NCBI GenBank assembly: GCA_963695825.1
Contig: CAVOHX010000031.1
Location: 19,538 to 83,537 of the forward strand
DNA from: an uncultured Chloroflexia bacterium
GTDB lineage: Bacteria; Chloroflexota; Anaerolineae; Promineifilales; UBA4811
Length of the DNA: 64,000 nucleotides
Direction: 5' to 3'
Part shown: positions 37,550-64,000 of the stretch, in pieces
How positions within the stretch are numbered: position 1 is the first letter of the stretch
How the letters are laid out: each line of letters begins with the position of its first letter
The notes under the pieces: model-generated
What the model was told of the DNA's origin: nothing
Database searches by the model: none
The model's input: the letters and a program-made list of their open reading frames with translations, nothing else
Position numbers and translations under genes: made by a program

Positions 37550-39823
37550 ATGAGAGTCGGAGCGAGGACGACAACACGAGCGGTGGGCGCGGCGCTTGGG
37601 GCGTTGCTGCTGGCCTCCCTGGCCTGCACGCTCTCCACAGGCGCCGCGCCCACGCCTACCCCCTCGGCATCGCTCATCCAACCGGCCGCGACCCTTGCAT
37701 CCGGGAACGCCGCTGTCCCCACTGGCGTACCGCAGCCGATCGAGCGTCCCGGCCCGCGCCGGCCTGGCGAGCTATGACCCGGTTCCGGTCGAGGTGGCGC
37801 CCAGCGTGCCGGCCTACACTTTCAGCCTGGCGGCGTTGAGCAATTCGGAAGCGCTCTATCTGCTGTCCGCTGACCAGCAGGCGGCGTTGGAAGCCGACGG
37901 TTTTGTCATTGTTTTTGAAGGGTTCGCCCAGATCTACCAGGTGTACCAGGCGGCCGACCGGCGCGGTCTGCCCAGCTTTGTGACCGTCGATGCGCTATTG
38001 CACGCTTTCCACATCCTGTTCAACTGGAGTTTGCGGTCTGTGGAGGCGGATTTTTTATCCGGTGAACTGGAGGCGTTGAGCGAGACGATGGTCGCGGCCG
38101 CCAGCGCCCAATATCAAGAGTTGACCGGTGAATTTCAGGCGGCCGCGGAGCAGAATCTGGCCTTTTTCAGCGTGGGCGCGCTGTTGCTGCGGCCCGATTT
38201 CCCGCCACCCGAGGCCGTGGCGCGGGTGGTGAGGGAAGAGGTGACGCTGATCTCGGCCCACGACGGGGTTTACATTTCGCCCCTACGGGGTCAGCCCGAG
38301 GACTATACCCAGTACGCGCCGCGCGGCCATTACACTCGCAACGAATTGCTGGAGCGCTATTTCCAGGCGATGACCTGGTACGGCCGGGCAGGTTTTCGCC
38401 TTGAGACTCCCGAGGATCCGGCCGTCGCCCGGCGAGAGACCCGGCAAGCGCTGCTGATACTGACTGCCTTGTATCAAGCCGAACTGGACGGCGCCCCGGC
38501 TCGCGAGAGTTGGGCACGCATCTACGAGCCGACCAGCTTTTTCGTCGAGGGGGCTGACGACCTGACGGTCTATGATTACGCCGCGGCCGTCCAGGCGATC
38601 TATGGACGTCTTCCGGCGCCCGATGAAGGGCTGGAACAATGGGGAGCGGCGCTGGACGACGAGGGCAAGCTCTCGGACCTCATGGTCACCCTGGCTACCT
38701 TTCGTGCGCCGCGCATCCTGGGCGGCCCGCTTACCGACGCCGAGGTCGAGGCGAATGGCGGCCCTCCGATGCAGTTCCGGTTCATGGGGCAGCGCTTTGT
38801 GCCCGACAGCGCGCTGTTTCAAGCGCTGGTGTACAACAGCGTCGGACTCTATCAGGGGGATGGCGAACCGTTCACCCTCTCGCAATCAGAGGTGGGACCG
38901 ATTCGCGGCCTTCCTCGCGGGCTGGATGTCGCGGCCGTGTTTGGCTCAGCCGCAGGCGTTGACCATTTTGGAGAGAGAGGGGGACACGGCCTATGATGGC
39001 TATTTGGAAATGGTGTCCCGGTGGCACGCCGAGTATGCTGCCCTGCCCGTCGAGGGGTGGACTTCGACCTTGTACTGGAACTGGCTCCATGCGTTGCGAC
39101 CGCTCCTGGAAACCAAGGGCGCCGGGTATCCCTCCTTCATGCAGGGAGAGGGGTGGCAGCTCAAGAGCTTGAACTCGTGGCTCGGCTCGTGGGCCGAGCT
39201 GCGACATGACACGCTGCTCTACGCCAAGCAGAGCTATGCGGCCGAGGCAACCGGTGCCGAACTGGAGATCGAGTTGTCCAAGGGGTACGTCGAGCCAGAG
39301 CCCGAGGTATTTGCGCGGCTGGCGGCGCTCGATCGCCAGCTCCTCGATGGGCTCGACGCGCGCGGATTGCTCAACGACGAGTTGCGGGCCAAGCTGCGGG
39401 ACCTGGAGGCGCTGTTGCTGGCGCTCAAGACGGTCTCTGAAAAAGAGTTGCGCGCCGAGCCGCTCTCGGCGGCCGAATATCGGTTGATTCGCGAGATTGG
39501 CGATCGGCTGGCAGAGCTCGACCACCTTTTCGTCCTCGCTGGAGGGCGGGTTGGGCGCCGAGGTGGATGAGCGCATGGCGCTGATCGCCGATGTGCACAC
39601 GGATCCCAACAGCGGCCTGGTGTTACAGGTGGGAGTGGGGGACGCGTTGCCCATCTTTGTGATCGTCTGGGTCGAGGGCGAGCGCACCCTGGCGCTGGGC
39701 GGGGTCTTTAGCTATTACGAGTTCAAACAGCCGCTATCGGAGCGCCTTTCCGACGAGGTCTGGCAGGCGATGGCGCCGCGGCCGCCGCTTCCAGAGTGGC
39801 TGGATTCACTGGTCGTACCCTAA
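37550..39823 (+). pseudogene. DUF3160 domain lipoprotein, three frameshifts as assembled
   Basis: Signal/lipobox LLLASLACT and the motif YTQYAPRGHYT that I remember for DUF3160. The pieces 37550-37777, 37596-38996, 38572-39570 and 39497-39823 are colinear. Confidence 0.7.
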
Positions 39824-46424: not shown

Positions 46425-46614
46425 GGTCACCTATTCCTGGGTTGCAGACCGGGCCAATTATACCAAGTCCGCCATTGCGGCACAGGGGAGGCGGCGGTAC
46501 GCCGCCTGTTTCCCCCGCTTGCGCCACGGCAGCTTGACTTTTTCCCTGCCCGGTAAAATTCCAGGGTGCAAATGACACCCTGCAGATCCCACGAGCAAGG
46601 AGACTGAACCCAAG

Positions 46615-47699
46615 ATGAAAGGACTGATTCTCAGCGGCGGCAAAGGGCACGCGCCTGTACCCGCTGACCTATACCAGCGCCAAGCAGTTGATCCCGGTGG
46701 CCAACAAGCCGGTGCTCTTCCGCGTGATCGAGGCCATCCGCGACGCCGGCATCACCGAGATCGGCATCGTGGTCGGCGACACGGCCGACGAGATCAGAGA
46801 GGCGGTGGGCGGGGCGAGCGCTGGGGCGTCAACATCACCTACATCCCGCAGGATGCGCCGCTGGGGCTGGCCCACGCGGTCAAGATCTCGCAGCGACTTT
46901 CTGGGCGACGATCGCTTTGTGATGTTCCTGGGCGACAACGTGATCCAGGGCGGCATCAGCCCCTGATCGCCGAGTTCGCCGACAGCGACTGGAACAGCCA
47001 GATCGTGCTGACCCGGGTCGAGCAGCCGGAGCAGTACGGCGTGGCCGAGCTGAACGACGATGGGCGCATCATCCGCCTGATCGAAAAACCCAAGGAGCCG
47101 CCCAGCGACCTGGCGCTGGTCGGCATCTATATGTTCGACCACCACATCTTCGAGGCGGTCGACAGCATCAAGCCCCTCCTGGCGCGGCGAGCTGGAGATC
47201 ACCGACGCCATCCAGTGGCTGGTCGAGCACGGCTACCGGGTCTATCCCTACGTCCACCGGGGCTGGTGGATCGACACCGGCGCGCCCGGACGACATGCTG
47301 GACGCCAACAGCCTGGTGCTGGAAGAGCTGGCGCACATGATCGAGGGCTACGTGGATCGGGACTCGCAGGTGGACGGCACGCGTGACGGTGGAGCACGGC
47401 GCCGAGATCATCAACAGCGTGGTGCGCGGCCCGGCCATCATCGGCGAGGACACGCGCATCGTCAACAGCTACGTCGGGCCCGTTCACCTCCATTTACCAC
47501 CACGTGCTGGTCGAAACAGCGAGATCGAGCGCTGCATCGTGCTGGAGCACAGCCGGATCCGCGGACATCCCGGCGCGCATCCAGGACAGCCTGATCGGCC
47601 GGCAGGTGGTCGATCGAGCGCTCGCCGATCAAGCCCAAGGCCCACAAGCTGACGTTGGGCGATAATAGCCAGGTTGGCATTCTGAACGGTGCAGCATGA
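46615..47699 (+). pseudogene. rmlA: Glucose-1-phosphate thymidylyltransferase, long form with C-terminal left-handed beta-helix; many (about 8 or more) frameshifts as assembled
   Basis: MKGLILSGGKG, then [41 protein letters not shown] and hexapeptide repeats, recovered across all three frames. The stop overlaps the rmlB ATG (ATGA). Confidence 0.8.
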
Positions 47700-48736
47700 A
47701 ACGATTTATGATCACCGGCGGGGCCGGCTTTATCGGCTCCAACTTTCGCCGCTATATGCTGGAGCGGTATCCCGACTATTTCGTGCTGGTCTATGACAAG
47801 CTGACCTATGCCGGCAACCTGGACAATCTGAAGGATGTGGCGGCGAGCTTTGTCGGTCGCTATGCCTTTGTGCAGAGGCGACATCTGCGATCCGCAGGCG
47901 GTGGCGAGAGGCGATCCAGACCCATCAGATCGACACGATCGTCAACTTTGCGGCCGAGACCCACGTCGATCGCTCGATCATGGACCCGGATGCCTTTATC
48001 CAGACCGACGTGTACGGCACCTACGTGCTGCTGGAGGCGGCTCGCCAGTTCGAACTGGAACGCTACCACCAGATCTCGACCGACGAGGTGTATGGGCACG
48101 TCCCGGTGGGCTCTTCCAGGGAGACGCGATCGTGGTCGCCCCGCGCAGCCCCTACGCCGCCAGCAAGGCGAGCGGCGACCTGATGGTCAACGCCTACCAT
48201 GTCACCTATGGACCTGCCGGTCACCATCACCCGCGGCGCCAACAATATCGGCCCTACCAGTACCCGGAAAAGGTGGTGCCGCTCTTTGTCACCAATGCCA
48301 TCGACGACCAGCCGCTGCCGCTCTATGGCGATGGGCTGCAGGTGCGCGACTATCAGTACGTGCTCGACCACTGCGAGGGGATCGACCTGGTGCTGCGCCG
48401 AGGCCAAGTGGGGAGGTCTACAACGTGGGCACCGGCACCGAGATGCACAACATCGACATGACCCACCTGATTCTTGAGCTGCTGGGCAAGCCCGCAAGCC
48501 TGATCCGCCACGTGCCGGACCGCGCCGGCCACGACCGCCGCTACAGCCTGAACGTGGACAAGATCCGGGCGCTGGGCTGGGAGCCAGAGCACAGCTGCGA
48601 GGAGGCGATCGAGCTGACCGTCCGCTGGTATGTCGACAACGAGTGGTGGTGGCGCAAGATCAAATCCGGCGCGTACAAGGAGTATTATCGCCAGCAGTAC
48701 GGCTGGCGGCTGGCCCAACCAGACACGGCTGGCTAG
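47696..48736 (+). pseudogene. rmlB: dTDP-glucose 4,6-dehydratase; several compensating frameshifts hidden inside one open frame
   Basis: The N-terminus ITGGAGFIGSN and the C-terminus are in the frame of ORF 47696-48736. The central part ([28 protein letters not shown]) reads in the frames of ORFs 47835-48461 and 47980-48183. Confidence 0.85.
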
Positions 48737-48878
48737 AACACTCTCGCCGGCCGGTCGGGCAACAGCCCCTGGTGCGTGGGCAGTTCCGGCACACAAGCGA
48801 ATACAACAAGTCGCGCTGATTGGGGGTCATCGGGGCGAATCGCGCCCGCCACAACCGCGTCAGGCAACTTGTTCCGAC

Positions 48879-48907
48879 TTGCAGACCTGATAGGTCTGAG
48901 CTATATT
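48879..48907 (+). promoter_or_regulatory. Promoter of the thiolase/DUF35 operon with a palindromic operator-like site in the spacer
   Basis: TTGCAG (48879-48884), 17-nt spacer, TATATT (48902-48907). The perfect inverted repeat CAGACCT-gat-AGGTCTG occupies 48882-48898. Confidence 0.5.
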
Positions 48908-48944
48908 CCGCTTGTCTGAACCCAGCAATTCTCAGGAGGTACGC

Positions 48945-50097
48945 ATGAGAGGATCCGTTGCCGTGGTCGGGGTGGGTTGGGCTGGCTTTCGGCCTACCAC
49001 GCCCGATCAATCCTACAAGGAGCTGATGTACGAGGCGGCCGTGCGAGCCTATGCCGACGCCGGGGTGGACCCTCGCCGCGACGTTGACAGCTTTGTCACA
49101 GTGGCCGAAGATTTTCACGAGGGGACCAGCATCTTTGACGAGTACGTGCCTGATCAACTGGGCGCCGTCCTCAAACCGGTGCACACGATCACTGGGGATG
49201 GGCTCCACGGCCTGGCGACCGGGTATATGCTCGTCTGCACTGGACAGGCGGATATTGTGGTGGTGGAAGGGCACAGCAAGGCGTCGAACGTGGTGACGTT
49301 GCCCGAGGTCACCGCTACGCTCAGGACCCGGTCCTCAACCGGCCGTTGCGCCTGAATACCCATTTTGTCGCCGGGCTAGAGATGAACCGCTACTTGCACG
49401 AGACCGGCGCCACCCGCGAGCAATGTGCGGCCGTGGTTGCCAAGAATCGGCATAATGCGCTCTGGAACCCTCGAGCCTCATTTGCCGCCGACTTGACGCT
49501 CGAGGATGTGTTGGCTGGCCCGCCGCTCGTTGGCCGTTGGGACGCCGCGAGACGGCCGAGCACGCTGACGGCGCGATCGTCATGGTGCTGGCCTCGGAGG
49601 ATCGAGCTGGCGCACTGACCGACCAACCGATCTGGATTCGGGGAGTCGGCTGGTGCAACGGTTCGGCCGGGCTGGAACAGCCGCGATTGGGCCCAGTTGG
49701 AGTACATCCGGCGAGCGGCCCGGATGGCGTATCGCCAGGCTGGCATTCGCACTCCCCAACAAGTGATTGACTTTGCCGAGGTGGACGACACCTATGCCTA
49801 CAAGGAGCTGCAGCACCTCGAGGCGCTGGGTTTGTGTCGCTTTGGCGAGGCCGGGCGAGCTGACAGAAGACGGGTGTACCTCGGCCGACGGCGATTTGCC
49901 GGTCAATGTCTCTGGCGGCAGCCTGGGGATGGGTCATCTGTTGGACGCGACCGGGCTCGCCCGGGCGCTGGAGGTGGTGCTGCAATTGCGCGGCGAGGCC
50001 GGGGCGCGTCAACTGGAGGACGTCGAGGTCGGCCTTGTGCCAGTCCTGGCGCGGCGTTCCCACCACTAGCGGCGCCGTCGCTGTGTTGAGCAACTGA
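48945..50097 (+). pseudogene. SCP-x/Ltp-type thiolase-like protein 1, several frameshifts as assembled
   Basis: VAVVGVGWAGF..., NRYLHETGATREQCAAVVAKN, PVNVSGGSLGMGH and ALEVVLQLRGEAG are recovered from the pieces 48912-49355, 49346-49618, 49697-50089, 49767-50069 and 49906-50097. AGGAGG lies upstream of the ATG at 48945. Confidence 0.75.
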
Positions 50098-50110
50098 GGA
50101 GGAGAGACCC

Positions 50111-51281
50111 ATGGGCATGAGAAAAGTTGCAGTTGTTGGGGCGGGTATGACGAAATTCGTCCGCCGGGCGCAAGAGACGGGCAAGGAGCTTTCCTGGCAG
50201 GCGACCCACATGGCGCTGGAATCCTGCGAAATGACCATGGATGACATCGAGGCGGTCTGCATGGGCACCGCCCCCGACGCCTTCGATGGCGTTCACATGA
50301 ACGGTGAGTACCTGAGCGACGGAGCCGGGGCCTGGAGCAAGCCCTATATGCGCTCCTACGTGGGTGGCGGGACGGGCGTCTTCGCCCCCATCCAGGGCTG
50401 GTATCACGTCGCCTCGGGTCTGTTTGAACCTGCCTGGTGGTGTGTGAGGAGAAAATGTCCAGCTATTATCCCGCACGCGCAGGCTGCTTTTGTGACCATC
50501 TTCGACCACACTACCGAACGGCCGCTAAGCCCAACCTGTTGTGGATCTTCGCCATGGAGATGAATCGGTACATGCAGACCTATGGCATCTCCAAGGAGGA
50601 TATCGCCCAGGTTTCGGTCAACACAAGCGCAACGCGGCCGACCATCCGTGTGCGCCGTTGCCTGGGGGATGCCAATATCACGCGTGGAGGACGTGCTGAA
50701 CTCTGAGGTGCTTGCCTGGCCGGTGCAGCCGGTTGGACGTCAGCCCGGTCAGCGATGGCGCGGTGGCCATCGTGCTGGCCGCCGAGCACGTAGCCAAGCG
50801 GATCACCGACAAGCCGGTCTGGATCCAGGGCGTCGGTTGGAATCTGGACACCGCCTACTGGACCAACCGAGATTTGGCCTATCCGCGCTATGTCGAATAC
50901 GCGGCTCGTATGGCCTACGATATGGCGGGCATCAAAGAGCCGCGCAAAGAGATCCACATCGCGAGCCCTATGATCCCTTTGATTACAAGGCGCTGCACCA
51001 CCTGGAAGGTTTGCAGTTGGCAGATCGTGGGCAGGCCCCTCAGCTGTACACGCGATGGCGTGGCGGCGAGGGATGGCGACATGCCGGTCTGCCCCTCGGG
51101 CGGGCTGCTGGGGGTGGGCAACCCCATCGCTGCTGCCGGCTTGATGAAGATCGCCGAACTCTTCTGGCAGTTGCGCGGCGAGGCGGGCGCGCGGCAGGTG
51201 CCCGGACAGCCCAAACGTGGCCTGGCACAGGCCTGGGGTGACCTGATGCAGGTCGGCACGGTAGTGATCATGGGTCGGTGA
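50111..51281 (+). pseudogene. SCP-x/Ltp-type thiolase-like protein 2, several frameshifts as assembled
   Basis: KVAVVGAGMTKF, EMNRYMQTYGISKEDIAQVSV, VCPSGGLLGVGNP and LFWQLRGEAG are recovered from the pieces 50111-50563, 50437-50706 and 50712-51281. Confidence 0.75.
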
Positions 51282-51292
51282 GGAGGCGAAAA

Positions 51293-51814
51293 ATGACTGC
51301 CAACATTCAAGATTTTCCAGGCACCTCGCTCAGCGAGAGTGATTTTGCTGAGGGAAAGGTCCTGTGTACCCACGACCGGATGAACGGCGTCTACGCGTGG
51401 GATACTGGCGTCGCCATCGGCCGCTATCTCGCCGCCCTAAAAGAGGGCATGATCCTGGGCGCACGGTGCAAGACCTGTCGCAGAACGGTTGTGCCACCAC
51501 GCACGGTCTGCGAATGGTGCTTCCGGCCGATGGACGAGTACGTTCCGCTTCAGGATACCGGGCACGTCAATACGTTCTCGCTGTGTTACGTCACGTGGGA
51601 CGTGCAACGGATCACCGAGCCCGAAATCCCCGCCGTGATCGAGATCGATGGAGCTTCTCCCCTGCACGGCATCATGCACATGTTGGGCGAGGTGGATCCA
51701 GAGCGGGTCAAAATTGGGATGCGCGTGCAGGCGGTGTGGAAACCGGCCGAGGAGCGCCAGGGAGCTGTCACCGACATTCGCTACTTTAAACCGGTGGACG
51801 AGGTGCCATCATGA
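51293..51814 (+). CDS. DUF35 (zinc ribbon + OB fold) protein 1
   Basis: CKTCRRTVVPPRTVCEWC zinc ribbon followed by an OB-fold-like C-terminus. GAGGAGG lies upstream. The frame is intact. Confidence 0.75.
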   Translation: MTANIQDFPGTSLSESDFAEGKVLCTHDRMNGVYAWDTGVAIGRYLAALKEGMILGARCKTCRRTVVPPRTVCEWCFRPMDEYVPLQDTGHVNTFSLCYVTWDVQRITEPEIPAVIEIDGASPLHGIMHMLGEVDPERVKIGMRVQAVWKPAEERQGAVTDIRYFKPVDEVPS

Positions 51815-52278
51815 CCCTGCTGGAAAGAGACTCTAACGCACCATCCGCCTGGACCGGCGAGATGTTTGTAACCAGCCGGTATACCTTTGGCCTGGCAGGG
51901 GAGCGGTTCTTTCGCGCCATCAAAGATGAGGGGCGCATCCTGGGCGCTCGTTGCGCCAAATGCGACCTCACCTACGTGCCGGCGGCTCTCTATTGTGAAC
52001 GCTGTCTGGGCGAACTGACCGAATGGGTGGACGTCGGCGTGTGTGGCGAGGTTCATTCCTTTACGCTACTGTACGAGAACTTGGACGGCAGCCATCGCGG
52101 CACGCCCGAGATCGTTGCCTTGGTCCAACTGGGCGATGGTGGCCTGGTTCATCGGTTGGGCGAGGTAGAGCCCGACGATGTCGCTATCGGTATGCTGGTC
52201 GAGGCGGTGTTCAAACCGGTTGAGGAGCGCCAAGGGTCGATCCTGGATATTGCGTTCTTTAGGCCGGTGGATGAATAG
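51811..52278 (+). CDS. DUF35 (zinc ribbon + OB fold) protein 2
   Basis: CAKCDLTYVPAALYCERC zinc ribbon. The start overlaps the upstream stop (ATGA). The frame is intact. Confidence 0.75.
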   Translation: MTLLERDSNAPSAWTGEMFVTSRYTFGLAGERFFRAIKDEGRILGARCAKCDLTYVPAALYCERCLGELTEWVDVGVCGEVHSFTLLYENLDGSHRGTPEIVALVQLGDGGLVHRLGEVEPDDVAIGMLVEAVFKPVEERQGSILDIAFFRPVDE

Positions 52279-52361: not shown

Positions 52362-52390
52362 TTGACACGCCAGACCGGCTGTACTATAAT
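52362..52390 (+). promoter_or_regulatory. Perfect-consensus sigma-70 promoter upstream of the corrinoid/MttB genes
   Basis: TTGACA (52362-52367), exactly 17 nt, TATAAT (52385-52390). Confidence 0.65.
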
Positions 52391-52511
52391 GTTTCGCGAG
52401 TTGCAACGCAGTTGCGTAATGCGGGACACACGTGTGATGTTTGAGCGGCATGGTGTGACCGACGAGTTGCGTGATGCCGATCAGGAACGGTTGTCAAAAG
52501 CATTTGTGTCA

Positions 52512-52557
52512 AGGGAACAGGTCGCCATCGGCGTAGGAGCCTGTTCCTTGTTCTTTT
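52512..52557 (+). promoter_or_regulatory. Terminator-like stem-loop inside the 5' leader (possible attenuator)
   Basis: Perfect 8-bp stem ggaacagg (52514-52521) / cctgttcc (52540-52547), extendable by wobble pairs, with an 18-nt loop, followed by TTGTTCTTTT. It lies about 25 nt before the corrinoid protein start. Confidence 0.4.
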
Positions 52558-52582
52558 CTAGTCATACTTGGGAGATATGAAC

Positions 52583-53223
52583 ATGGCCGACGTTTTTCAA
52601 AAGATCGCTAGCAAGCTGTACGACGGAGAGGACCAAGAGGTCGCCGAGTTGGTGCGAGAGGCGCTGGACCAAGGAGTCGCACCCCGAGGAGATCCTAGCC
52701 AATGGCCTGATCGCTGGCATGGACGAGGTGGGACGCGATTTCAAGGCCGGTGACCTCTTTGTGCCCGAGGTGCTGATCGCCGCGCGGGCCATGCACGCCG
52801 GGATGAACATCCTGCGGCCGCTGCTGGCCGAGAGCGAGCGTGCCGAGCGCCGGCAAGTACGTGATCGGCACCGTCAAGGGTGACCTGCACGACATTGGCA
52901 AGAACCTGGTCAGGATGATGCTGGAGGGCGCCGGTTTCGAGACGATCGACCTGGGCACCGACGTGGAGCCGCAGGCGTTTGTCGAGGCCGTGCGCGAGCA
53001 CCAGCCCGACAGCTGATCGGGATGAGCGCGCTGCTGACCACGACGATGGTCAGTATGGGCACACCATCGAGGCGCTTGGAAGAAGCCGGGCTGCGTCGAC
53101 TCGGTCAAGATCATGATCGGCGGGGCACCGGTGACGGCGGCCTTTGCCGAGGAGATCGGCGCCGATGCCTATGCGCCCGATGCGGCCACGGCCGTGGATG
53201 TGGCCCGCGAGCTGGCGGGCTGA
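52583..53223 (+). pseudogene. Methyltransferase cognate corrinoid protein (B12-binding cap + Rossmann domain), about 3 frameshifts as assembled
   Basis: Cap region ILANGLIAGMDEVGRDFKAGDLFVPEVLIAARAM and the DxHxxG motif in GTVKGDLHDIGKNLV, then MSALLTTTM and IMIGGAPVT. An alternative ATG is at 52577. The pieces span all three frames. Confidence 0.8.
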
Positions 53224-53282
53224 GCGACGCGAGGTGCGTGACCCTGGCTGATCACGCGCCTCCTCACCGCTGACAATAGAAG

Positions 53283-54768
53283 ATGATGACCAAACGACGA
53301 TCGCCGGTCAAGGGGTTGCCCGGTGGACAGTACAGGCCGTTGACCGACGAGCAGGTGCAGCGGATCCACCAGGCTGCGTTGGCGGTTCTCGAACGGACTG
53401 GCGTTCAGGTCGATGAGCCTGAGGCGCTGGCGCTGTTCCGTGACGGGGGGGCGCAGGTGAGCGGCAATCGGGTGCGCGTGCCGCGTTCTCTGGTCGAGGA
53501 CGCCGTCGAGCTGGGCGCCGTAGCGGGTGGTCCTGGCGGGCCGCGACCCGCAGTGGGACCTGGAGCTGACCGGGGCCAAGGTCCACATGGGGACGGGAGG
53601 GGCGGCGCTGACCGTGTTCGACCTGGAGACCGGCGAGCCGCGCCACGCCGTGCTGCAGGATGTGGTAGACCTCGCGCGGCTGGTGGACGCCCTGGATAAT
53701 ATCCATTTCTACCTGATCCCGGTCTTTCCCACCGACCTCGGCCGGGACGACGTCGACGTGCAACAGTACTATGCCGGCCTGGCGAACACCGGCAAGCACG
53801 TGCAGTCCGGCGTCTATAGCGTCGACGGGATTCGGGACACGGTGGCGATGGCCGAGCGCATCCAGGGGGGGCGACTGCCGCCTGCGGGAACGGCCGGTCG
53901 TCTCGTTCATCACCAGTTGGATGGTCAGCCCGCTCCTCTTTGCGACCGAGGTCACCACGCTGTTGATCGAGAGCTGCCGCCAGGGCATGCCGGTGGTGCT
54001 GTCGGCCGCGCCCATGGCTGGCTCGACCGCGCCGATGACGCTGGCGGGGGAGTTGGCCCAACTGACGGCCGAGCAGCTTGTCCGGCGTCGTGCTGACCCA
54101 GTTGGTGCAGTCGCGGCACCCCAGTGGTGATCGGTCCGATTCCGGGGACGGCCGACATGAAGCGGGCCGCTACCTGGGAGGATCGGCCGAGTTTGGCATG
54201 GCCAACGCCGCCATGGCGCAGATCGGCCAGTTCTACCGCCTGCCGCTGTACAATTCGGCCGGCATGACCGACGCCAAGATCCCCGACATCCAGGCGGGGT
54301 TTGAGAAGGGGATCGGCGCCGTACTGGCGGCGTTGGCGGGCAGCAACTATATCCACCACGCGGCCGGTATGCTGGAGAATATGAGTTCGGTGGCTCGCCG
54401 AGCAATATGTGATCGACAATGAGATCCTGGGGATGACGATGCGCGTGCTGCGCGGTATCGAGGTGGACGACGACAGCCTGGCGCTGGAGGTCATTGACCA
54501 GGTGGGACCCGGCGGCCATTTCCTGATGGCCGATCACACCGTGAGGCATATGCGCTCCGAGTTTTACTACCCATCCCCGGTGGTGGACCGGCAGGGCTGG
54601 GAGCGCTGGCAACAGGCGGGCGGCCTGGACGCCCGCGAGCGGGCGCGGCAGATCGCGCGCCAGATCATGGCCGCCATCACCCGGAACCGTGCCAGAGCCA
54701 CTGGACCCGGGTGCGTTTTTCGCACAGGTGGATTGGCGCTGAGGGCCGGGGCGACGATCAAGATCTAG
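53283..54768 (+). pseudogene. MttB-superfamily (trimethylamine methyltransferase family) protein 1, no pyrrolysine codon, about 5 or more frameshifts as assembled
   Basis: LTDEQVQRIHQAALAVLERTGV, FITSWMVSPL, PMAGSTAPMTLAG, YNSAGMTDAK and VIDNEILGM are recovered from the pieces 53283-53699, 53527-54096, 53771-54130, 54078-54422 and 54409-54768. None of the breaks is an in-frame TAG. Confidence 0.8.
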
Positions 54769-54783
54769 AGAGGAGGTGAACCG

Positions 54784-56256
54784 ATGACAAAACAGATTCC
54801 CATCTCAACTAGCGCCCGTGCTGCAGATGCTATCGGAAGAGCAGGTCCAGGCGATCCACATGCCAGCCTGGACATCCTGGCGCAGACCGGCCTGGTGATG
54901 AAGAATCAGGTGGGCCGGGAGTTTTGCTGGACGCCGGTGCGTGGGAGTCGGAGCGGCCTCCGGCTGCGGTCGGGCGATCCGTCGTATCAAGATCCCCGAA
55001 TTCATGGTCATGGACGCGATCGCCTCCGCTCCTACGCGCATCCCAATGTTCAACCGGCTGGGCGAGCCGATGATGCCGCTGGAATCGGGGCAAGGTCTTT
55101 TTCGGGCCCGGCTCGGATTGTATCTTTACCATGGATGTCGAGACCGGAGAACGGCGTATGGCGACGGCGCTGGACATCCAGCGCATTGCGCATCTGTGCG
55201 ACGGCCTGGGGCAAATCGACTTTATCATGTCGATGGGCAATCCATCGGACGTGCTGGCGCTCGATATCTATGTGCACGAATTCGTCAGCATGATCCGGGG
55301 GTCGGTCAAGCCCAACATCTATACGGCCAATAACCGGGCGGACATGGAGGCGATCTACCAGATTGCCTCTGCGGTGGCAGGCGGGGAAACCAAGCTGCGC
55401 GAAAAGCCCTTTATGATGCTGTATGCCGAGAGCATTTCGCCGCTTCTCTACCCTGGCGAATCGGTGGACAAGCTGCTCTTTTGCGCCGAGATGGGCATCC
55501 CAGTCACCTATCCCCCTTCGCCAAACACGGGAGGCGGCGGGCCAATCACGCTGGCGGGTGCGCTGGCGCTGGGCAACGCCGAGTGCCTGGTTGGACTGGT
55601 GCTCGCCCAGTTGGTTCGTCCGGGCACGCCGTTTCTCTATGGTATGAACACGGCCGCTCTGGACATGAAGTCGGCCATCGTGAGCTATGGCGCGCCCGAG
55701 TGGCCCACCGGCATGGCGGCCTGGTGCGACCTGGCGCGGTTCTACGATCTGCCCACCTGGGGCGCGGCCGGCGCGACTGACAGCAAGGTCGTGGATGCCC
55801 AGGCCGGGATCGAAGCCTCGATCTCGATCATGACCGCCTTTTTGACGCGCTGCAACCTGGTGCACGACGTGGGCTATATCGAGTATGGCACCACCTCGTC
55901 CATGGAAATGCTGGTGGTGGCAGATGAGATCATCCGCGACGTCCGGTTCGTCATGGAGGGGGTTGAGGTGAGCGAGCGGACGCTGGCCCGGGATGCGATT
56001 CACAGGGCCAAACCGGGCGGGGGCTTTTTGGCCGACGACCACACGCTGGACAATTGGAAGTGGGCGCAATGGCGGCCGGAGCTCATCGAGCCGCGACCGC
56101 TATGACCGTTGGGTCAAGCGCGGAAGCCAGGACATGACTGCGCGAGCGAATGCCCGCGCTCGCGAGATCCTATCCGAGCACCAGGTGCCCCCGCTCTCCG
56201 GGGATGCCGAGCGGGTCATCGCCGAGGTATTGAAACAGCGCGCCGCCAACGGCTAG
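54784..56256 (+). pseudogene. MttB-superfamily protein 2, no pyrrolysine codon, several frameshifts near the 5' and 3' ends as assembled
   Basis: The central 975 nt (ORF 55131-56105) are intact: MLYAESISPL, PNTGGGGPITLAG, GATDSKVVDAQAG, VVADEII. The N-terminus from the ATG at 54784 (AGAGGAGG upstream) and the C-terminal tail (ORF 55993-56256) are in other frames. Confidence 0.8.
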
Positions 56257-56270
56257 GCGACGCAACGGCC

Positions 56271-56305
56271 GACGGCGCCAGGCATTGCCTGGCGCCGTCT
56301 TTTTT
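56271..56305 (+). terminator. Strong rho-independent terminator after the MttB genes
   Basis: Perfect 12-bp GC-rich stem gacggcgccagg (56271-56282) / cctggcgccgtc (56288-56299), 5-nt loop, TTTTTT at 56300-56305. Confidence 0.8.
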
Positions 56306-56412
56306 ATGGCGATGCGTCACCCAGGGGCGAGGTTGAACTTGCCGATACCTGTTCAATGGTGTACTGTGGTGACTGATCTGATTGACAAGAATCGAGGGCA
56401 AAGGAGCAGTTG

Positions 56413-57678
56413 ATGGCCAAATTGGAATACTCGAAGGAACCGGTGCATTCCGAGAACCGGCGGGCCGATGCCCGATTCCTTGATATGCAGCCGGCAACCC
56501 AATGCCTGCACGCTGGAGAACGGTGGGAAAAACAGCTCTTTTGGACCTCGAGCACACCGATCTACAACTCGACCACCTATTTCTATGACAGCGCCAGCGA
56601 TCTGGACGACCGGGTTTACTATCGCAAGCCAGGGTATGTCTACTCGCGTAGCGGGACGCCGACCAACACGGCGCTGGAACGGGCGCTGGCGACGTTGGAG
56701 AACGCCGAGGTGGCGCAGAGTTGCGCCTCGGGGATGGCAGCCAGCCATCTGGCGCTGCTAGCCGCCGGCGCGGGTCGGGAAGAGCTCATTCTCTGCTCGA
56801 GCGATGTCTATGGCAGCGTCTATACGATGGTGGAGAACATCTTCCCGCATCTGGGTGCTCGTAGCATCCTGATGGACTTTACCGATCTGGAGCGCGTGGA
56901 AGAGGCGATCCGAAAGGAGCGTCCCAAGGTCGTCTATTTCGAGGTGGTCACCAACCCGATGACCAAGGTGATCGATGCCCCGGCGGTCACCGAAATCGCC
57001 CACAGGTACGGCGCGACCGTGGTTGTGGACAATACGTTTACCACCCCCTATCTGATGCGGCCGTTCGAATACGGGGCGGACTATGTGACTCATAGCGTCA
57101 CCAAGTTCCTCGCCGGGCACGGCGACGTGCTGGCGGGGGCGGTTCTCTGTCGGCGCGAGGATTTTCACCGCCTGCACGACCTGTTTATCCAGGTCGGGTG
57201 TACGCTCGGGCCCAACGAGGCGTGGCTGGCGCTGAGGGGGATCAAGACCTTTACGTTGCGGATGGAGCGCCATTGCGCCAACGCCATGGAGGTGGCCCGC
57301 TTTCTAGAATCCCACTCTCTTGTCAAGCAGGTGCGCTATCCGGGCCTGGAGAGTCATCCACAGCACGGGACCGCCGGGCGTGTGTTCAGCGAGCGTCCTG
57401 GAGAGTACGGAGCGATGCTGAGCTTTGAGATCGCGGATTGCGACAAAGACAAGGCCTTTCGTTTTCTGGATGCGCTCAACGTGATCCTGCCCGCCACGAC
57501 CCTGGGCGACATCTACTCTCTGATCGTCAACCCGGCGCGCACGACCCATCACTGGCTCACCGAGGAGCAGTTGGCCGAGATTGGCGTTTATGCAGGCACC
57601 TTTCGCATGTCGGTCGGTGTGGAGCACGTCGATGACCTCAAGACCGACCTGGACCATGCCCTCCGTGCCAGTGAGTAG
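56413..57678 (+). CDS. Cys/Met-metabolism PLP-dependent enzyme (cystathionine gamma-synthase / methionine gamma-lyase / O-acylhomoserine sulfhydrylase family)
   Basis: Intact frame. The PLP lysine is in HSVTKFLAGHGD, with the family motif YSRSGTPT. AAGGAG lies 6 nt upstream of the ATG at 56413. Confidence 0.85.
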   Translation: MAKLEYSKEPVHSENRRADARFLDMQPATQCLHAGERWEKQLFWTSSTPIYNSTTYFYDSASDLDDRVYYRKPGYVYSRSGTPTNTALERALATLENAEVAQSCASGMAASHLALLAAGAGREELILCSSDVYGSVYTMVENIFPHLGARSILMDFTDLERVEEAIRKERPKVVYFEVVTNPMTKVIDAPAVTEIAHRYGATVVVDNTFTTPYLMRPFEYGADYVTHSVTKFLAGHGDVLAGAVLCRREDFHRLHDLFIQVGCTLGPNEAWLALRGIKTFTLRMERHCANAMEVARFLESHSLVKQVRYPGLESHPQHGTAGRVFSERPGEYGAMLSFEIADCDKDKAFRFLDALNVILPATTLGDIYSLIVNPARTTHHWLTEEQLAEIGVYAGTFRMSVGVEHVDDLKTDLDHALRASE

Positions 57679-57797
57679 GTAACCGCGACGACATCTGGTT
57701 CAAACATTATTGCTGCGCCAGAGACCAAATCATCAACCACAGGCCGGGCCAGGAGCAGACAGCGCAGACCCGCCGGGCTTGAGACAAAGGAGACACG

Positions 57798-58577
57798 ATG
57801 TATCAGAACCGAGACATGGGGATCAACCAGATCAAGGCCCGGAAGAATCACGTGTGTTATGGCATGGGGTTGGGCATTATCCTATTGGACGACGTCTATC
57901 CCGGATTTCCGGGTGACGTGCGCAACGCCAGCGCTTTTCCGTTCCCGATCCAATACGAGATTGCTGAGGGGGTGGACATCTGGGCCCTGGTGCAAGAAGA
58001 GGACAAGTCGCCGTGCCTGGCCCCGATCCAGCGGGCGGCGAAAAAGCTGGAGCGGATGGGTTGTCGCGGCATCGCGGCCGAGTGCGGCTATTTCGCCTAC
58101 TTTCAGCAGGACATCGCTGGCTATGTGGACGTACCTGTCTTTATGTCGAGTTTACTCCAGGTGCCCTTTGCCCAGCAGTTGATCGGGCCGAACAAGGTGG
58201 TGGGCATCTTGGCGGCCCGCGAGGACCGTCTCACTCAGGCTCACCTGGAGGCGGTAGGCGTCCGGCCGGGCAGCAACTATGTGATCACCGGCGCCGAGCA
58301 GGAGGTCGAGGAGTTTCAGCATCTCTGGTACGCTCCCAAGCGCACCGACCCACCGGGCGCCTTTTACGACAAGACGGAACGAGAGTTTGTCGGTCTCACC
58401 GTCGAGTTTTTCAACGCCCATCCCAACATGGGCGCCATGATGCTCGAGTGCACCGGCATGCAGCCGTTTGCGCGGGCGGTGCAGCGCGAGATCGACATCC
58501 CAGTCTTTAGCTGGGGCACCCTGCTCGATTTCGCCTACTCGGTCGTGGTGCACCGGGATTATTACGGGCACGTCTAG
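57798..58577 (+). CDS. Asp/Glu/hydantoin-racemase-fold family protein, 259 aa
   Basis: Intact frame. N-terminus [25 protein letters not shown] and two candidate catalytic Cys residues in EC motifs (AAEC96GYF, MLEC218TGM). AAGGAG lies upstream. The family assignment is from memory of similar unannotated racemase-family proteins. Confidence 0.6.
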
Positions 58578-58600
58578 AGCGCGTTCCAAGGAGGTGTGAC

Positions 58601-60250
<1,650 letters not shown>

Positions 60251-60284
60251 GCTGGACCCTGAAACGCAGTAACGGAGACGGTCG

Positions 60285-61850
60285 ATGAGGGAGATACTAC
60301 TCGACGGCGAACACCTGACCCTGGAGCAGGTTGTGCTGGCGGCTCAGGACGTGAACGTCCGGGTGGGGTTGGCGCCTGAGGCGCGGCGAAAGGTAGACCG
60401 CGCGGCGCGAGCGGTGGATGATTTCATCGCGCGAGGGCAGACTGTCTATGGGATAACCACCGGCTTTGGGGCGTTCAAGGACCGGATCATCCCGCCAGAG
60501 CAGGTGGCGCAACTACAACGCAACATCCTCATGAGCCACGCAGTCGGCGTGGGGGAGCCGCTAGACGAGGCGGCGACCCGCGCCATGTTGCTGATACGCG
60601 CCAACGCGCTTGCCAAAGGGCATAGCGGCATTCGCATTAGCACCCTCGAGCTCTTGATCGAGATGCTGAATCGCGGCGTTCATCCGGTGGTGCCCAGTCA
60701 AGGGTCGTTGGGCGCCAGTGGTGATCTGGCGCCGCTGGCCCACATGTCGCTGCCCTTGATCGGCTTGGGAGAGGTTATCTATCAGGGGGAGTGTCTGACT
60801 GCCGCAGAAGCATTCCGGCGGGCCGGACTGAGCACGGTGACGTTGGCCGCCAAGGAGGGGCTGGCTCTGACCAACGGGACGGCCATGATGACGGCCGTCG
60901 GGGTGCTCAACGCCCATCAAGCCGAGAACCTGGCATGTGTGGCGGATGTGGCTGGCGCCATGAGCCTCGAGGCGCTGCACGGCACCACGCTCGCTTTTGA
61001 CCCTCGCATCCATGCAGTTCGGCCCCACCCGGGTCAGGTCCGGTCGGCGGCTGTCATGCTCCAGTTGCTCGACGGGAGCGCCTTGACCCGCGCCGCGGAC
61101 CCTCTCCACGTGCAGGATGCCTACACCCTGCGCTGCATCCCCCAGGTTCACGGCACAGCGCGGGATGCAGTCGCCTATGCGCGCTGGGTGTTGGAGGTAG
61201 AACTCAATTCGGCGACCGACAATCCGCTGATCTTTTTCGACGACGAGACCGGCGAGGCGACGGTCATTTCGGGCGGAAACTTTCACGGCGAGCCGCTGGC
61301 GACGGCAATGGATTATCTGGGGCTGGGGCTCACCGAGCTGGGCAACATCTCGGAACGACGGTTGACCCGTCTAACTGACGAGGCGAGCAATCAGGAGACG
61401 TTACCCGCCTTTCTCATCAAGCATGGGGGCCTCAACTCGGGCTTTATGTTGACCCAGTACACGGCCGCGGCGCTGGCTTCCGAGAACAAGGTGTTGGCGC
61501 ACCCGGCCAGTGCGGACACCATCCCCTCCTCGGCCAACATCGAGGATCACGTCAGCATGGGCCCGGCGGCCGCCATGCAGACCCGGCAAATCGCCGCCAA
61601 CGTGGAACGGATCCTGGCGCTGGAGCTTTTCGCGGCCGCCCAGGCGATCGATTTTCGCCGCGAGGCTCTGGGCGCTGACGCGTCATTGGGGGCCGGCACC
61701 GGACCTGCCTACAGGCTAATCCGGGAGAGTGTTCCTTTCCTGGAGCAGGACGACGTCATGTACCCCTATATCGAGGCAGTGCGGCAGCTGGTGGCCAGTG
61801 GTGAGATGGTGGCGGCCGTCAACCAGGCGCTTGCGAAAGGTTGTTGGTAG
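60285..61850 (+). CDS. hutH: Histidine ammonia-lyase (MIO-type aromatic amino acid lyase)
   Basis: Intact 521 aa. The MIO-forming triad is present in GSLGASGDLAPLAHM, with NGTAMM and the HAL-like length. Substrate specificity is inferred from the hutU neighbourhood. Confidence 0.85.
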   Translation: MREILLDGEHLTLEQVVLAAQDVNVRVGLAPEARRKVDRAARAVDDFIARGQTVYGITTGFGAFKDRIIPPEQVAQLQRNILMSHAVGVGEPLDEAATRAMLLIRANALAKGHSGIRISTLELLIEMLNRGVHPVVPSQGSLGASGDLAPLAHMSLPLIGLGEVIYQGECLTAAEAFRRAGLSTVTLAAKEGLALTNGTAMMTAVGVLNAHQAENLACVADVAGAMSLEALHGTTLAFDPRIHAVRPHPGQVRSAAVMLQLLDGSALTRAADPLHVQDAYTLRCIPQVHGTARDAVAYARWVLEVELNSATDNPLIFFDDETGEATVISGGNFHGEPLATAMDYLGLGLTELGNISERRLTRLTDEASNQETLPAFLIKHGGLNSGFMLTQYTAAALASENKVLAHPASADTIPSSANIEDHVSMGPAAAMQTRQIAANVERILALELFAAAQAIDFRREALGADASLGAGTGPAYRLIRESVPFLEQDDVMYPYIEAVRQLVASGEMVAAVNQALAKGCW

Positions 61851-62396
61851 ATGGAGAGCTGGAAGACGGTCGCCCGCAAGACGATACTGGACCACAGCAA
61901 GTATCTGAGGGTGGAGGAACACGCGGTGCAGTTGCCTGACGGCCGGGTCATCGAGAATTGGCCATGGGTGATCACGCCCGATTACGTCAACGTGGTGGCT
62001 CTGACAGAGGCGAGAGAGTTCATCCTCTTTCGCCAGGTCAAGTACGGGGTGGCGGGAGTCTCTTTGGCGCCAGTGGGTGGGTACCTGGAGCCAGGCGAGG
62101 ATCCGTTGGCGGCCGCCAAAAGGGAGACGCTTGAGGAGACAGGGTATGCGGCCGCCGAGTGGCAGAGTTTGGGGACCTATCGCGTGGGTGCCAACCGGGG
62201 TTTTGGAACTGCGCACTTTTTCCTCGCTCGGGGCGCCCGCCGAGTCGCCGAGCCAGACGCCGACGACCTGGAGGAGCAAGAGCTGTTGCTGCTCAGCCAG
62301 TTCGAGGTGGAACAGGCCTTGGCGGATGGAGCGTTCAAGGTGTTGGCCTGGGCGAGCGTCTTTGCGCTGGCGCTCCTGTTCGTGAAGCGAGGTTGA
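61851..62396 (+). CDS. Nudix hydrolase (ADP-ribose pyrophosphatase-like)
   Basis: Nudix box GGYLEPGEDPLAAAKRETLEETGY. The ATG directly abuts the hutH stop (TAGATG). Confidence 0.8.
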   Translation: MESWKTVARKTILDHSKYLRVEEHAVQLPDGRVIENWPWVITPDYVNVVALTEAREFILFRQVKYGVAGVSLAPVGGYLEPGEDPLAAAKRETLEETGYAAAEWQSLGTYRVGANRGFGTAHFFLARGARRVAEPDADDLEEQELLLLSQFEVEQALADGAFKVLAWASVFALALLFVKRG

Positions 62397-62422
62397 GCCG
62401 GCGGCCGGCAGACGGAGGAATA

Positions 62423-63844
62423 ATGCGCATCGTTGACCTGATCGTGGTCCCGGCGGTGGGGGGGTATTTTGTTGAAGATCTGACCGCGTTACAGGCCAGA
62501 TCGATTCCCATTCCCGAGCGCTATCAGGCCATCCCAGAGACGCCCGGTTTCCACGCCGTGCGTCAGGTGGCGCAGGGGGTTTCGGTGGGGCTGGTGCTTG
62601 AGGGATCATCAGGGGCCAGGGAGGTGGTCTGGGGGGACTGCGTCGCGGTGGCCTATAGCGGCAAGGCGGGGCGCTCGCCAGTTTTCCTGTCCAGCGACGG
62701 CTTAGCGACGATCCGGTCGGCCGTAGCGCCGCAACTGGTGGGCCAACAGGTCGCCGGTTTCCGCGAGATGGCGGCCGAGGTGGATGCGCTGACCGAGCAG
62801 GTCACTGTGACCCGGCCGTTGCCCGAGCCAGAGGCGGACGATGACGAGTTGTCGGTCACAGGGAGCATGTCGCGGCGCGACCTGCTGACGGCGCCGGCCC
62901 GCTTTTTCCGCGCCGTCCAGCGTGACCTGGAGGCCGCAGACGAACCCACGACCGAGCAGGTGGTCGTAGAGCGGCCGCTCCACACGGCGGTCCGATACGG
63001 CGTCAGCCAGGCACTACTGGCGGCGAGGGCCTTGGTCGAGAAGGTGACCATGGCCGAGGTGATAGTTCAAGAGTGGGGGCTCCCTCTCCCCACGGAGCCA
63101 GTGCCCATTCACGCCCAGTCGGGCGGCGAGCGGTACCACAACGCCGACAAGATGATCGCCCGCCGGGTTGCTTCGTTGCCCCACGCGCTGGTGGACGACA
63201 TCCCGGACCAGTTGGGCGTCGATGGAACCAAGCTGACCGCCTATGTGCGCTGGCTAGCAAAGCGGATCAGAGACCTGGGAGGAAGCGACTATGCGCCGAC
63301 CATCCACCTGGATGTGCACGGCGCGCTGGGCAAGCTCTTTGAAAACCAACTGGGCAAAATCCTGGGGCAGCTCTATGCGCTCGATCAGGCGGCAAATCCG
63401 TTCAAGTTGCGCATCGAGTGTCCCGTCATCATGGAGAGCCGAACGGCGCAGATCGAGACCATGTTCAAGCTGCGCGACTATGCCCGCTTTCGCAAGCTCA
63501 AGCTCCAGTTGGTGGCTGATGAATGGGCCAACACGTTGGAGGATATCCGCGCGTTTGTCGAGGCGGGGGCGGCCGACATGATCCAGGTCAAGATGCCTGA
63601 TCTGGGAAGCATTCATAACACAGTCGAGGCAGTTCTCCTCTGCCAGGACAATGGGGTCGGCGCCTTTTTGGGCGGCAGTTGCTGCGAGACCGATCTCTCG
63701 GCCCGCGTGTCGGTCCACGTGGCGCTGGCAACCCGGCCGGCGATATTGATGGCCAAGCCAGGGATGGGGGTGGATGAGGGGACAAGCATTGTGCAGAACG
63801 AGATGACGCGGACCCTGGCGTGGATTCAGGCGCGCGGTGGGTAG
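62423..63844 (+). CDS. Methylaspartate ammonia-lyase (enolase-superfamily 3-methylaspartase) with a ~60-aa insertion
   Basis: Intact 473 aa. Motifs HTAVRYGVSQALL, LPHAL, ADEWANTLEDI, IQVKMPDLGS and AKPGMGVDEG are colinear with clostridial MAL as I remember it. GGAGG lies upstream of the ATG at 62423. Confidence 0.85.
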   Translation: MRIVDLIVVPAVGGYFVEDLTALQARSIPIPERYQAIPETPGFHAVRQVAQGVSVGLVLEGSSGAREVVWGDCVAVAYSGKAGRSPVFLSSDGLATIRSAVAPQLVGQQVAGFREMAAEVDALTEQVTVTRPLPEPEADDDELSVTGSMSRRDLLTAPARFFRAVQRDLEAADEPTTEQVVVERPLHTAVRYGVSQALLAARALVEKVTMAEVIVQEWGLPLPTEPVPIHAQSGGERYHNADKMIARRVASLPHALVDDIPDQLGVDGTKLTAYVRWLAKRIRDLGGSDYAPTIHLDVHGALGKLFENQLGKILGQLYALDQAANPFKLRIECPVIMESRTAQIETMFKLRDYARFRKLKLQLVADEWANTLEDIRAFVEAGAADMIQVKMPDLGSIHNTVEAVLLCQDNGVGAFLGGSCCETDLSARVSVHVALATRPAILMAKPGMGVDEGTSIVQNEMTRTLAWIQARGG

Positions 63845-63923: not shown

Positions 63924-64000
63924 ATGAACTACCCAGACAGGCTCGAAAGAGATAGAAAAGAGGTTCGGGTGAAGTCAGTCTTTGTCAAGCAGTTGCAGGC
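63924..64000 (+). CDS. 5' end of an unidentified gene running off the window
   Basis: AGGGGGA lies about 9 nt upstream of the ATG at 63924, and the frame (MNYPDRLERDRKEVRVKSVFVKQLQ) is open to the window end. It is too short to classify. Confidence 0.3.
   Translation, partial: MNYPDRLERDRKEVRVKSVFVKQLQ

Follow-up and report, generated by a model that had tools for sequence, protein, structure and literature searches.

A candidate Anaerolineae gene island joining corrinoid-dependent demethylation by non-pyrrolysine MttB proteins to hut genes, a racemase-fold protein and a methylaspartate ammonia-lyase-like enzyme

We analyzed a 64,000-nucleotide stretch of DNA (hereafter the window) from an uncultured Chloroflexia bacterium placed in the Anaerolineae (assembly GCA_963695825.1, contig CAVOHX010000031.1, positions 19,538 to 83,537), which carries an array of nine same-strand genes at 52362-63844. 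Genes for a corrinoid protein and two members of the MttB methyltransferase superfamily (MttB1 and MttB2) are followed by genes for a pyridoxal phosphate (PLP) enzyme of the Cys/Met-metabolism family, a protein of the Asp/Glu/hydantoin racemase superfamily (RACE), urocanate hydratase (hutU), histidine ammonia-lyase (HAL; hutH), a Nudix hydrolase, and a protein of the methylaspartate ammonia-lyase (MAL) family. All nine genes were recovered by family searches and in translated frames, and the identities proposed in an initial annotation of this DNA were correct. The G+C content of the window is approximately 62%, and the closest relatives of its proteins come from metagenome-assembled genomes, many of which bear the label Anaerolineae or Chloroflexota. 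From sequence comparisons, we propose with moderate confidence that this region belongs to an island recurring in Anaerolineae, whose products would demethylate one or more methylated nitrogen compounds by way of a corrinoid and break them down.

Table 1. Positions of the features of the nine-gene array and its borders, numbered from the first nucleotide of the window.
Feature	Position	Strand	Remarks
Sigma-70-type promoter-like site	52362-52390	+	TTGACA-17 nt-TATAAT, 12/12; ~185 nt 5' of the corrinoid gene
Corrinoid protein gene, methyltransferase type	~52577-53223	+	B12-binding_2 and B12-binding domains, DxHxxG; three frames as assembled
MttB1 (MttB_a type)	53283-54768	+	MttB superfamily; four frame changes as assembled
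MttB2 (MttB_b type)	54784-56256	+	MttB superfamily; at least two frame changes as assembled
Intrinsic terminator	56271-56305	+	13-bp stem (56271-56299) with 11 G-C pairs, 3-nt loop, T run
Cys/Met-metabolism PLP enzyme	56410-57678	+	PF01053, 383 bits; intact
RACE (Asp/Glu/hydantoin racemase superfamily, PRK07475)	57798-58577	+	NF005679; intact
hutU, urocanate hydratase	58601-60250	+	TIGR01228; intact
hutH, histidine ammonia-lyase	60285-61850	+	TIGR01225, MIO motif; intact
Nudix hydrolase	61851-62396	+	Family search; intact; start codon abuts the hutH stop codon
MAL-family lyase	62423-63844	+	TIGR01502; intact
Start of next gene ('MNYPDRLERDRKEVRVKSVFVKQLQ...')	63924-64000	+	79 nt after the MAL-family gene

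As shown in Table 1, the array falls into two units. Unit 1 (corrinoid gene, MttB1, and MttB2) is bounded by the promoter-like site and the intrinsic terminator, and the structure of the latter agrees with the initial annotation, which had placed a strong terminator between two transcription units. An Rfam search of the 185-nt leader of the corrinoid gene matched no riboswitch or other family. Unit 2, comprising the other six genes, is a tightly packed operon, with spacings of 23, 34, 0, and 26 nt from RACE through the MAL-like gene and a gap of 119 nt between the PLP enzyme gene and RACE. The true start of the MAL-like gene is at 62423, not at 62159. The gene that follows it encodes at least 205 amino acids on a short public contig encoding an identical MAL protein, and its 25-residue N-terminal stub in the window had no match in the 170 loci compared in this study, which are designated here by L numbers.

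The three genes of unit 1, which are broken by frameshifts in the assembly, were traced across frames using intact orthologues. The corrinoid gene encodes the DxHxxG motif as GDLHDIG, and its intact orthologue in the relative L002 scored 216.6 bits with TIGR02370 (cutoff, 215.3), being MtgC-like but under the MtgC cutoff. Membership of both methyltransferases in the MttB superfamily was supported by PF06253 in the listed homologues, which the window fragments and the intact orthologues match. The Anaerolineae MttB paralogs tested scored 384-441 bits over nearly the full length of TIGR02369 (cutoff, 525), and an intact 324-amino-acid stretch of MttB2 was 84-91% identical to listed metagenome proteins, several of which are labelled Anaerolineae. 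Neither paralog carries a pyrrolysine codon, as had been stated before: an ATG (Met) codon at 54264 of MttB1 aligns with the pyrrolysine of the trimethylamine methyltransferase MttB (7XCL), and the stretch of MttB2 matching the pyrrolysine region is free of stop codons; the orthologues are uninterrupted open reading frames (ORFs). A match to the Rfam family PYLIS_3 inside MttB1 (54264-54363; 44.7 bits, gathering threshold 38) starts at this same ATG and contains no UAG, and it looks like coding-sequence homology only.

The glycine-betaine contacts of the non-pyrrolysine methyltransferase MtgB are Tyr97, Arg312, His348, and Phe356, and Arg312 has been reported to be conserved among MttB-superfamily members of known function, with a proposed salt bridge to acidic substrates (PMC13080624). 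In our alignment, only His348 of the four contacts was retained in the MttB paralogs, with Gly, Tyr, His, and Met at positions 97, 312, 348, and 356 of MttB_a, and Ser, Trp, His, and Gly in MttB_b. The position of Arg312 is occupied by Tyr in MttB_a and in MttB_c, a third paralog found in relatives, by Trp in MttB_b and in a paralog encoded after a molybdenum hydroxylase, and by Met in a MAL-linked paralog. Tyr at this position is shared by MttB_a and MttB_c with the true MttB (7XCL), against which MttB_a scored best (258 bits). These replacements, together with an identity of approximately 27-33% to MtgB and of 30-51% among the paralogs themselves, show that the paralogs do not resemble MtgB. 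Because the glycine-betaine site of MtgB is not preserved in any of the five MttB subfamilies, their substrates are probably new, and the residue pattern points to substrates or binding modes that may lie outside the characterized set. The loss of Arg312 is also moderate evidence against binding, in the manner of MtgB, of betaines with an alpha-carboxylate such as hercynine (histidine betaine).

The gene neighborhoods of relatives were collected in a scan for MttB2 orthologues, using one genome per species, which yielded 80 Chloroflexota loci; further annotated contexts were taken from homologues of MAL, RACE, and MttB and from metagenome contigs. The common core consists of an IclR regulator, the corrinoid protein, MttB_a, MttB_b, MttB_c, and an ATP-binding cassette (ABC) importer of the SBP_bac_5 type with CBS domains, often with a pterin-binding methyltransferase and a hydantoinase-A-like ATPase between the IclR and corrinoid genes. 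The solute-binding protein is of the generic peptide/opine/nickel type and does not indicate the substrate. The ATPase, a 680-amino-acid protein of the hydantoinase-A/oxoprolinase (ASKHA) kind, is encoded just 5' of the corrinoid gene in L026, L032, L034, L063, and other loci (7211-9250 in L038) and follows the pterin-binding methyltransferase gene in several of them; it may serve these systems as the reductive activase for the corrinoid.

RACE and MAL-like genes, whose place beside the MttB genes had first been remarked in the window, proved to be regular members of MttB clusters in relatives. A RACE gene, 74-85% identical, comes after the MttB array or after the associated ABC transporter in L001, L004, L005, L009, L012, L014, L030, L063, L083, L166, L167, L169, and L171, and it lies directly 3' of MttB_c in L004, L005, L063, and L171. 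Among these, L171 holds the MttB_b closest to that of the window on a sizeable contig (91% identical over the intact stretch), in the order IclR, corrinoid, MttB_a, MttB_b, MttB_c, RACE. RACE and MAL-like genes are adjacent or nearly so in L014, L166, L167, and L169, a single zinc-dependent alcohol dehydrogenase gene separates them in L083/L084, and such pairs are usually followed by an MttB gene, then by genes for a molybdenum hydroxylase and its flavin adenine dinucleotide (FAD) subunit, and then by another MttB gene. In L043, L046, L057, L083, L084, L085, and L167, the gene after the MAL-like one encodes an MttB protein. We also observed a conserved operon in L083 (8092-17973), L166 (8475-17322), L167 (10001-19389), and L169 (8538-17278), in which some gene ends overlap and the order is MttB, RACE, the alcohol dehydrogenase in some cases, MAL-like, a further MttB in some cases, a molybdenum hydroxylase of the xanthine dehydrogenase family, the FAD subunit, and MttB; N-methylated heteroaromatic substrates for this operon are a speculative suggestion.

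Adjacency of hutU to MttB clusters likewise recurred in relatives. A hutU gene (79-86% identical) stands right after the transporter of an MttB cluster in L026, L027, L032, and L034, and the metagenome contig L087 (19-3668) encodes MttB_c, an overlapping 461-amino-acid polytopic membrane protein, and then hutU, which suggests that a secondary transporter stands in for the ABC importer. In a neighbor-joining tree of MttB_b, the hutU-linked loci fell into three branches (the window, a group of L025, L026, L032, and L034, and L027). Because the neighborhood recurs in relatives, the adjacency of the MttB and hut genes noted in the initial annotation is not a peculiarity of this one genome. Another PLP enzyme of the Cys/Met family, with 34-37% identity to that of the window, occurs in L005, L011, L012, L043, L057, L063, and L171. 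There it pairs with a divergent MttB on the opposite strand beside the main cluster (e.g., 3970-6753 in L171), a further recurring combination of an MttB with an amino acid lyase.

The RACE protein of the window scored 266 bits with NF005679 (PRK07475; cutoff, 231) and 27.8 bits with PF01177, under the threshold of 31, and its Cys96 and Cys218 were invariant in the alignment. A sequence search found no solved relative of RACE, and an AlphaFold model built on a shallow alignment (mean predicted local distance difference test score, 52) was too poor for use. In L168 (10001-12121 of CP070659.1, labelled Candidatus Bathyarchaeota), an 80%-identical RACE gene lies beside an MR_MLE enolase-superfamily gene with no MttB nearby, which suggests horizontal transfer and a partnership of RACE with the enolase superfamily that does not need MttB.

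The MAL-like protein of the window belongs to its family, scoring 448 bits with TIGR01502 (equivalog cutoff, 286), and Lys331, His194, Gln329, Gln172, Cys361, and the three metal (Mg) ligands are kept in 120 of the 120 members of its clade. The substrate pocket is altered: in the numbering of Clostridium tetanomorphum MAL, the window protein has Ala at Gln73 (its own residue 77), His at Phe170, and Met at Leu384, and position 73 of the clade is Ala in 83 members, Glu in 35, and Cys in 2, with no Gln. The wild-type MALs 1KCZ and 1KKO both have Gln73; the canonical pocket is in the minority among approximately 100 representatives of the family. The best solved match of the window protein is the engineered Q73A variant (3ZVH), and engineered MAL Q73A accepts linear and cyclic alkylamines, giving N-substituted aspartates (PMC7586795). 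A further difference from the solved MALs is an insertion of approximately 60 residues (at about residues 125-184, window 62795-62975), which is present throughout the Anaerolineae clade. The neighbors of MAL-like genes in annotated relatives are MttB, RACE, zinc-dependent alcohol dehydrogenase, and molybdenum hydroxylase genes, and no glutamate mutase was seen in the Pfam-annotated MAL loci (L083, L084, L085, L166, L167, and L169) or in labelled recurrent gene clusters. Since no glutamate mutase accompanies MAL in annotated relatives, its reading as a methylaspartase fed by glutamate is doubtful. The earlier proposal that glutamate enters a methylaspartate route is therefore not supported, given the altered pocket and the absence of a glutamate mutase both from these relatives and from the ORFs scanned in the window. 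A lyase for N- or C3-substituted aspartates, on the other hand, would fit the constant methyltransferase company of the gene.

The two hut products appear, by model scores and motifs, to be canonical urocanate and histidine enzymes. hutU scored 909 bits with TIGR01228 (equivalog cutoff, 375), but only 641 with the thiourocanate hydratase model NF058530 (cutoff, 930) and 688 with the S-methyl-thiourocanate hydratase model NF058531 (cutoff, 880). hutH scored 636 bits with TIGR01225 (equivalog cutoff, 539) and has the Ala-Ser-Gly that forms the 4-methylideneimidazole-5-one (MIO) group at residues 144-146; we take its 'SH' and 'IEDHVSM' motifs to be the equivalents of His83 and Glu414 of Pseudomonas putida HAL. 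MIO-type lyases are expected to need a free amino group, and any histidine betaine would have to lose all three methyl groups before hutH could act. Because both enzymes look ordinary, one carbon skeleton processed here would be histidine or something converted into histidine. The best solved relatives of the PLP enzyme are methionine gamma-lyases, and an orthologue that is 73% identical precedes hutU and hutH in L086. In L002, the MttB/ABC cluster ends with a gene for an orthologue of the Nudix protein (79% identical).

In the pathway that we propose, the MttB paralogs of unit 1 would transfer the methyl groups of the substrate to the corrinoid protein, and both units would serve the same pathway; we infer this, as well as the direction of flow. 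Relatives carry the remaining parts beside these genes, namely the pterin-binding methyl-corrinoid:tetrahydrofolate (THF) methyltransferase, IclR, MttB_c, and the Opp-type ABC importer with CBS domains, none of which was found among the ORFs scanned in the window. Unit 2 would represent a merger of two modules of relatives, the signature pair of RACE and the MAL-like C-N lyase, and the trio of PLP enzyme, hutU, and hutH. A functional link of the two units is likely in our judgment, although with confidence in the middle of the range.

A serious rival to this link, which we consider possible but somewhat unlikely, is that the units are merely juxtaposed in a variable region of the chromosome, with unit 1 serving a small methylated amine and unit 2 being an unrelated amino acid catabolic operon, with a methionine gamma-lyase-like enzyme, histidine utilization, and a MAL-family lyase. 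Several observations weigh against our proposal, and the first three of them favor this rival. A strong terminator parts the two units, and the trio of PLP enzyme (73% identical), hutU (84%), and hutH (77%) stands alone in L086, between gyrA and unrelated genes. The relative L002 shares synteny with the window on both sides, with Ham1, nucleotidyltransferase, and epimerase genes on one side and the Nudix gene on the other, but in place of the PLP enzyme, RACE, hutU, and hutH of the window it has an ABC transporter and a ferredoxin-like gene. No hut gene lies within 10 kb in the majority of MttB_b loci, L088 carries hutU with no cluster gene detected, and the many MttB paralogs per genome raise the chance of adjacency. 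A metagenome scan for hutU returned mostly relatives of at most 76% identity with none of the queried cluster genes beside them, only L086, L087, and L088 being informative. The MttB_b tree, moreover, is a simple neighbor-joining tree without support values. Finally, in the ORF scans of the window, which covered all of it except 34-37.5 kb and 40.6-43.3 kb, we found no transporter, THF methyltransferase, activase, or regulator, and no hutI, hutG/F, glutamate mutase, hydantoinase, or carbamoylase; the initial annotation had also reported hutI/hutG, glutamate mutase, the activase, and the THF methyltransferase as lacking. Against mere juxtaposition, the closest relative and about a dozen further loci have RACE in its usual place behind the MttB array, RACE, MAL, and MttB form operons with adjacent or overlapping genes, and the hutU adjacency recurs in three MttB_b lineages of different architectures. 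It is very unlikely, in turn, that the corrinoid and MttB genes are pseudogenes decaying after the loss of MttB_c and the transporter. Such decay would agree with the approximately nine frame changes in the 3.7 kb of unit 1 compared with none in the 7.4 kb of unit 2, and with the absence of MttB_c and the ABC transporter from the scanned parts of the window. However, the frameshifts, which the initial annotation had correctly seen in the corrinoid and MttB genes, are not peculiar to them. The essential gene infB (18800-20600) has at least three frame changes in the assembly, and the epimerase, nucleotidyltransferase, DUF3160 (37596-39570), and aconitase genes are also split, several of these genes lying at ~18-52 kb. 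Unit 1, in addition, retains a perfect promoter-like site and the strong terminator. Because infB is broken likewise, the frameshifts of unit 1 are indel errors of the assembly, and the pseudogene reading was rejected. The errors are patchy (infB, 46600-48740, 48900-51280, 52577-56256, and many genes at ~37-56 kb), whereas unit 2 (7.4 kb) and the other genes checked within the first 34 kb read through intact. The errors therefore provide no evidence on decay of the MttB module, and their patchiness points to a long-read assembly with uneven coverage or polishing.

Two specific substrates had been put forward for the island. In the hercynine route, imported histidine betaine would lose its three N-methyl groups to the corrinoid protein through MttB, and the resulting histidine would pass to hutH and then to hutU. 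The recurrent hutU-MttB adjacency speaks for this part of the earlier proposal, as hutU directly follows the transporter of MttB_b/MttB_c clusters in several lineages, and up to three tandem paralogs (a, b, and c) would fit three methyl groups; an MIO-type hutH would be expected to require complete demethylation. The route would also be new, since nothing joining MttB with hercynine was found in the literature searched. Nevertheless, the proposal was weakened to the point where we regard it as quite improbable. Arg312 is absent from all the MttB subfamilies, and His348 is the only glycine-betaine contact retained. To our knowledge, no MttB-family enzyme demethylates dimethyl and monomethyl products. 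Moreover, the window has only MttB_a and MttB_b while the hutU-linked relatives have MttB_b and MttB_c, most clusters with all three paralogs have no hut genes nearby, and the trio of PLP enzyme, hutU, and hutH occurs by itself in L086. A lyase-first route for hercynine has, furthermore, already been reported (bioRxiv 10.1101/2025.08.13.670108). The other substrate, ergothioneine, would involve chemistry of the 2-thiohistidine type, with the PLP enzyme removing the sulfur and the racemase-fold protein handling a hydantoin, and it was suggested by the presence of a Cys/Met-family PLP enzyme and a hydantoin-racemase-superfamily protein next to hutU and hutH. This chemistry is not supported, because hutU is canonical by its model scores, over the urocanase equivalog cutoff and far under the thiourocanate-type cutoffs, and because hutH carries the MIO motif and fits the equivalog model for histidine ammonia-lyase; neither a hydantoinase nor a carbamoylase was among the ORFs scanned in the window. 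Ergothioneine catabolism, as envisaged in the initial annotation, is thus extremely unlikely.

Compared with known systems, the proposed demethylation island is a variation on the already described non-pyrrolysine MttB systems, with conserved new partners. Like MtgB/MtgC/MtgA and MtpB, MtcB, MtyB, and MthB of Eubacterium limosum, it has a corrinoid gene beside non-pyrrolysine PF06253 genes, and its relatives likewise encode a pterin-binding methyltransferase and an ABC importer of the OpuAC betaine type or bearing CBS domains. It differs from them in an identity of its paralogs to MtgB of only about 32-33%, in the replacement of Arg312 by Tyr, Trp, or Met and of Tyr97 and Phe356, in its two to three tandem paralogs, and in further paralogs interleaved with RACE, the MAL-like lyase, and the molybdenum hydroxylase. 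The pyrrolysine-containing MttB (7XCL) shares with MttB_a the Tyr at the position of MtgB Arg312, whereas Met replaces the pyrrolysine here. As in the Hut pathway of histidine utilization, hutH and hutU occur together and match the equivalog models, but they sit between a racemase-fold gene and the Nudix and MAL-like genes, and hutI and hutG/F were absent both from the ORFs scanned in the window and from the surroundings of hutU-hutH in L086. The lyase-first catabolism of ergothioneine and hercynine (ergothionase, thiourocanate hydratase, and the histidine betaine trimethylammonia-lyase of Shewanella woodyi) also uses HAL-like and urocanase-like enzymes on histidine-derived betaines; with the MIO-type HAL and canonical urocanase found here, any betaine would need to be demethylated first. 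The ergothioneine pathway of Burkholderia sp. HME13 differs similarly, as the lyase and the hydratase of the window are of the histidine and urocanate types and no hydantoinase or carbamoylase was found in it. With the MALs of the clostridial methylaspartate pathway (1KCZ and 1KKO), the MAL-like protein has the fold, family, and catalytic residues in common, but no glutamate mutase was seen near it in the ORFs scanned in the window or in annotated relatives, and Ala73, His170, Met384, and the insertion of about 60 residues set it apart.

The rest of the window is mostly housekeeping in content, encoding EF-G, GreA, ThyX, TruB, NusA, DnaE, and others. Directly 5' of the island (48900-52278) are two frameshifted genes that are thiolase-like by eye, with no family match, followed by two DUF35 genes of the ChsH2-type OB-fold/Zn-ribbon kind. 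The thiolase-like and DUF35 genes are absent from the same position in the syntenic relative L002.

A more far-reaching interpretation, which we offer tentatively and consider rather unlikely as a whole, is that of a modular system in which each MttB paralog lacking Arg312 feeds a skeleton-specific catabolic enzyme encoded beside it. hutH and hutU would then be paired with methylated histidine, the Q73A-like MAL lyase and the PRK07475 racemase or isomerase with N-methylated aspartate-type compounds, and the molybdenum hydroxylase with N-methylated heteroaromatics, while gamma-lyase-family PLP enzymes would be another partner. If true, corrinoid-dependent demethylation would gain several new classes of substrate as well as new accessory enzymes, and a route for histidine betaine that starts with demethylation could be part of the system. 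The sources found that name MttB together with Anaerolineae appear to be metagenome surveys, and one environmental study labels MttB homologues of Chloroflexi and others as 'mtgB'.

Non-pyrrolysine MttB enzymes are very widespread, and only a handful of their substrates have been established; the subfamilies described here, which lack the arginine common to the characterized members, are therefore leads. In the literature searched, nothing linked MttB to hut genes, MAL, or PRK07475, and the PRK07475 protein, the Ala73 MAL-family lyase, hutU/hutH, and the molybdenum hydroxylase are partners that it had not connected with corrinoid methyl transfer. If the link between the two units holds, the MAL-like enzyme would be a natural counterpart of an engineered biocatalyst, and the island would point to new ways in which Chloroflexota that abound in sediment and soil recycle methylated nitrogen compounds.

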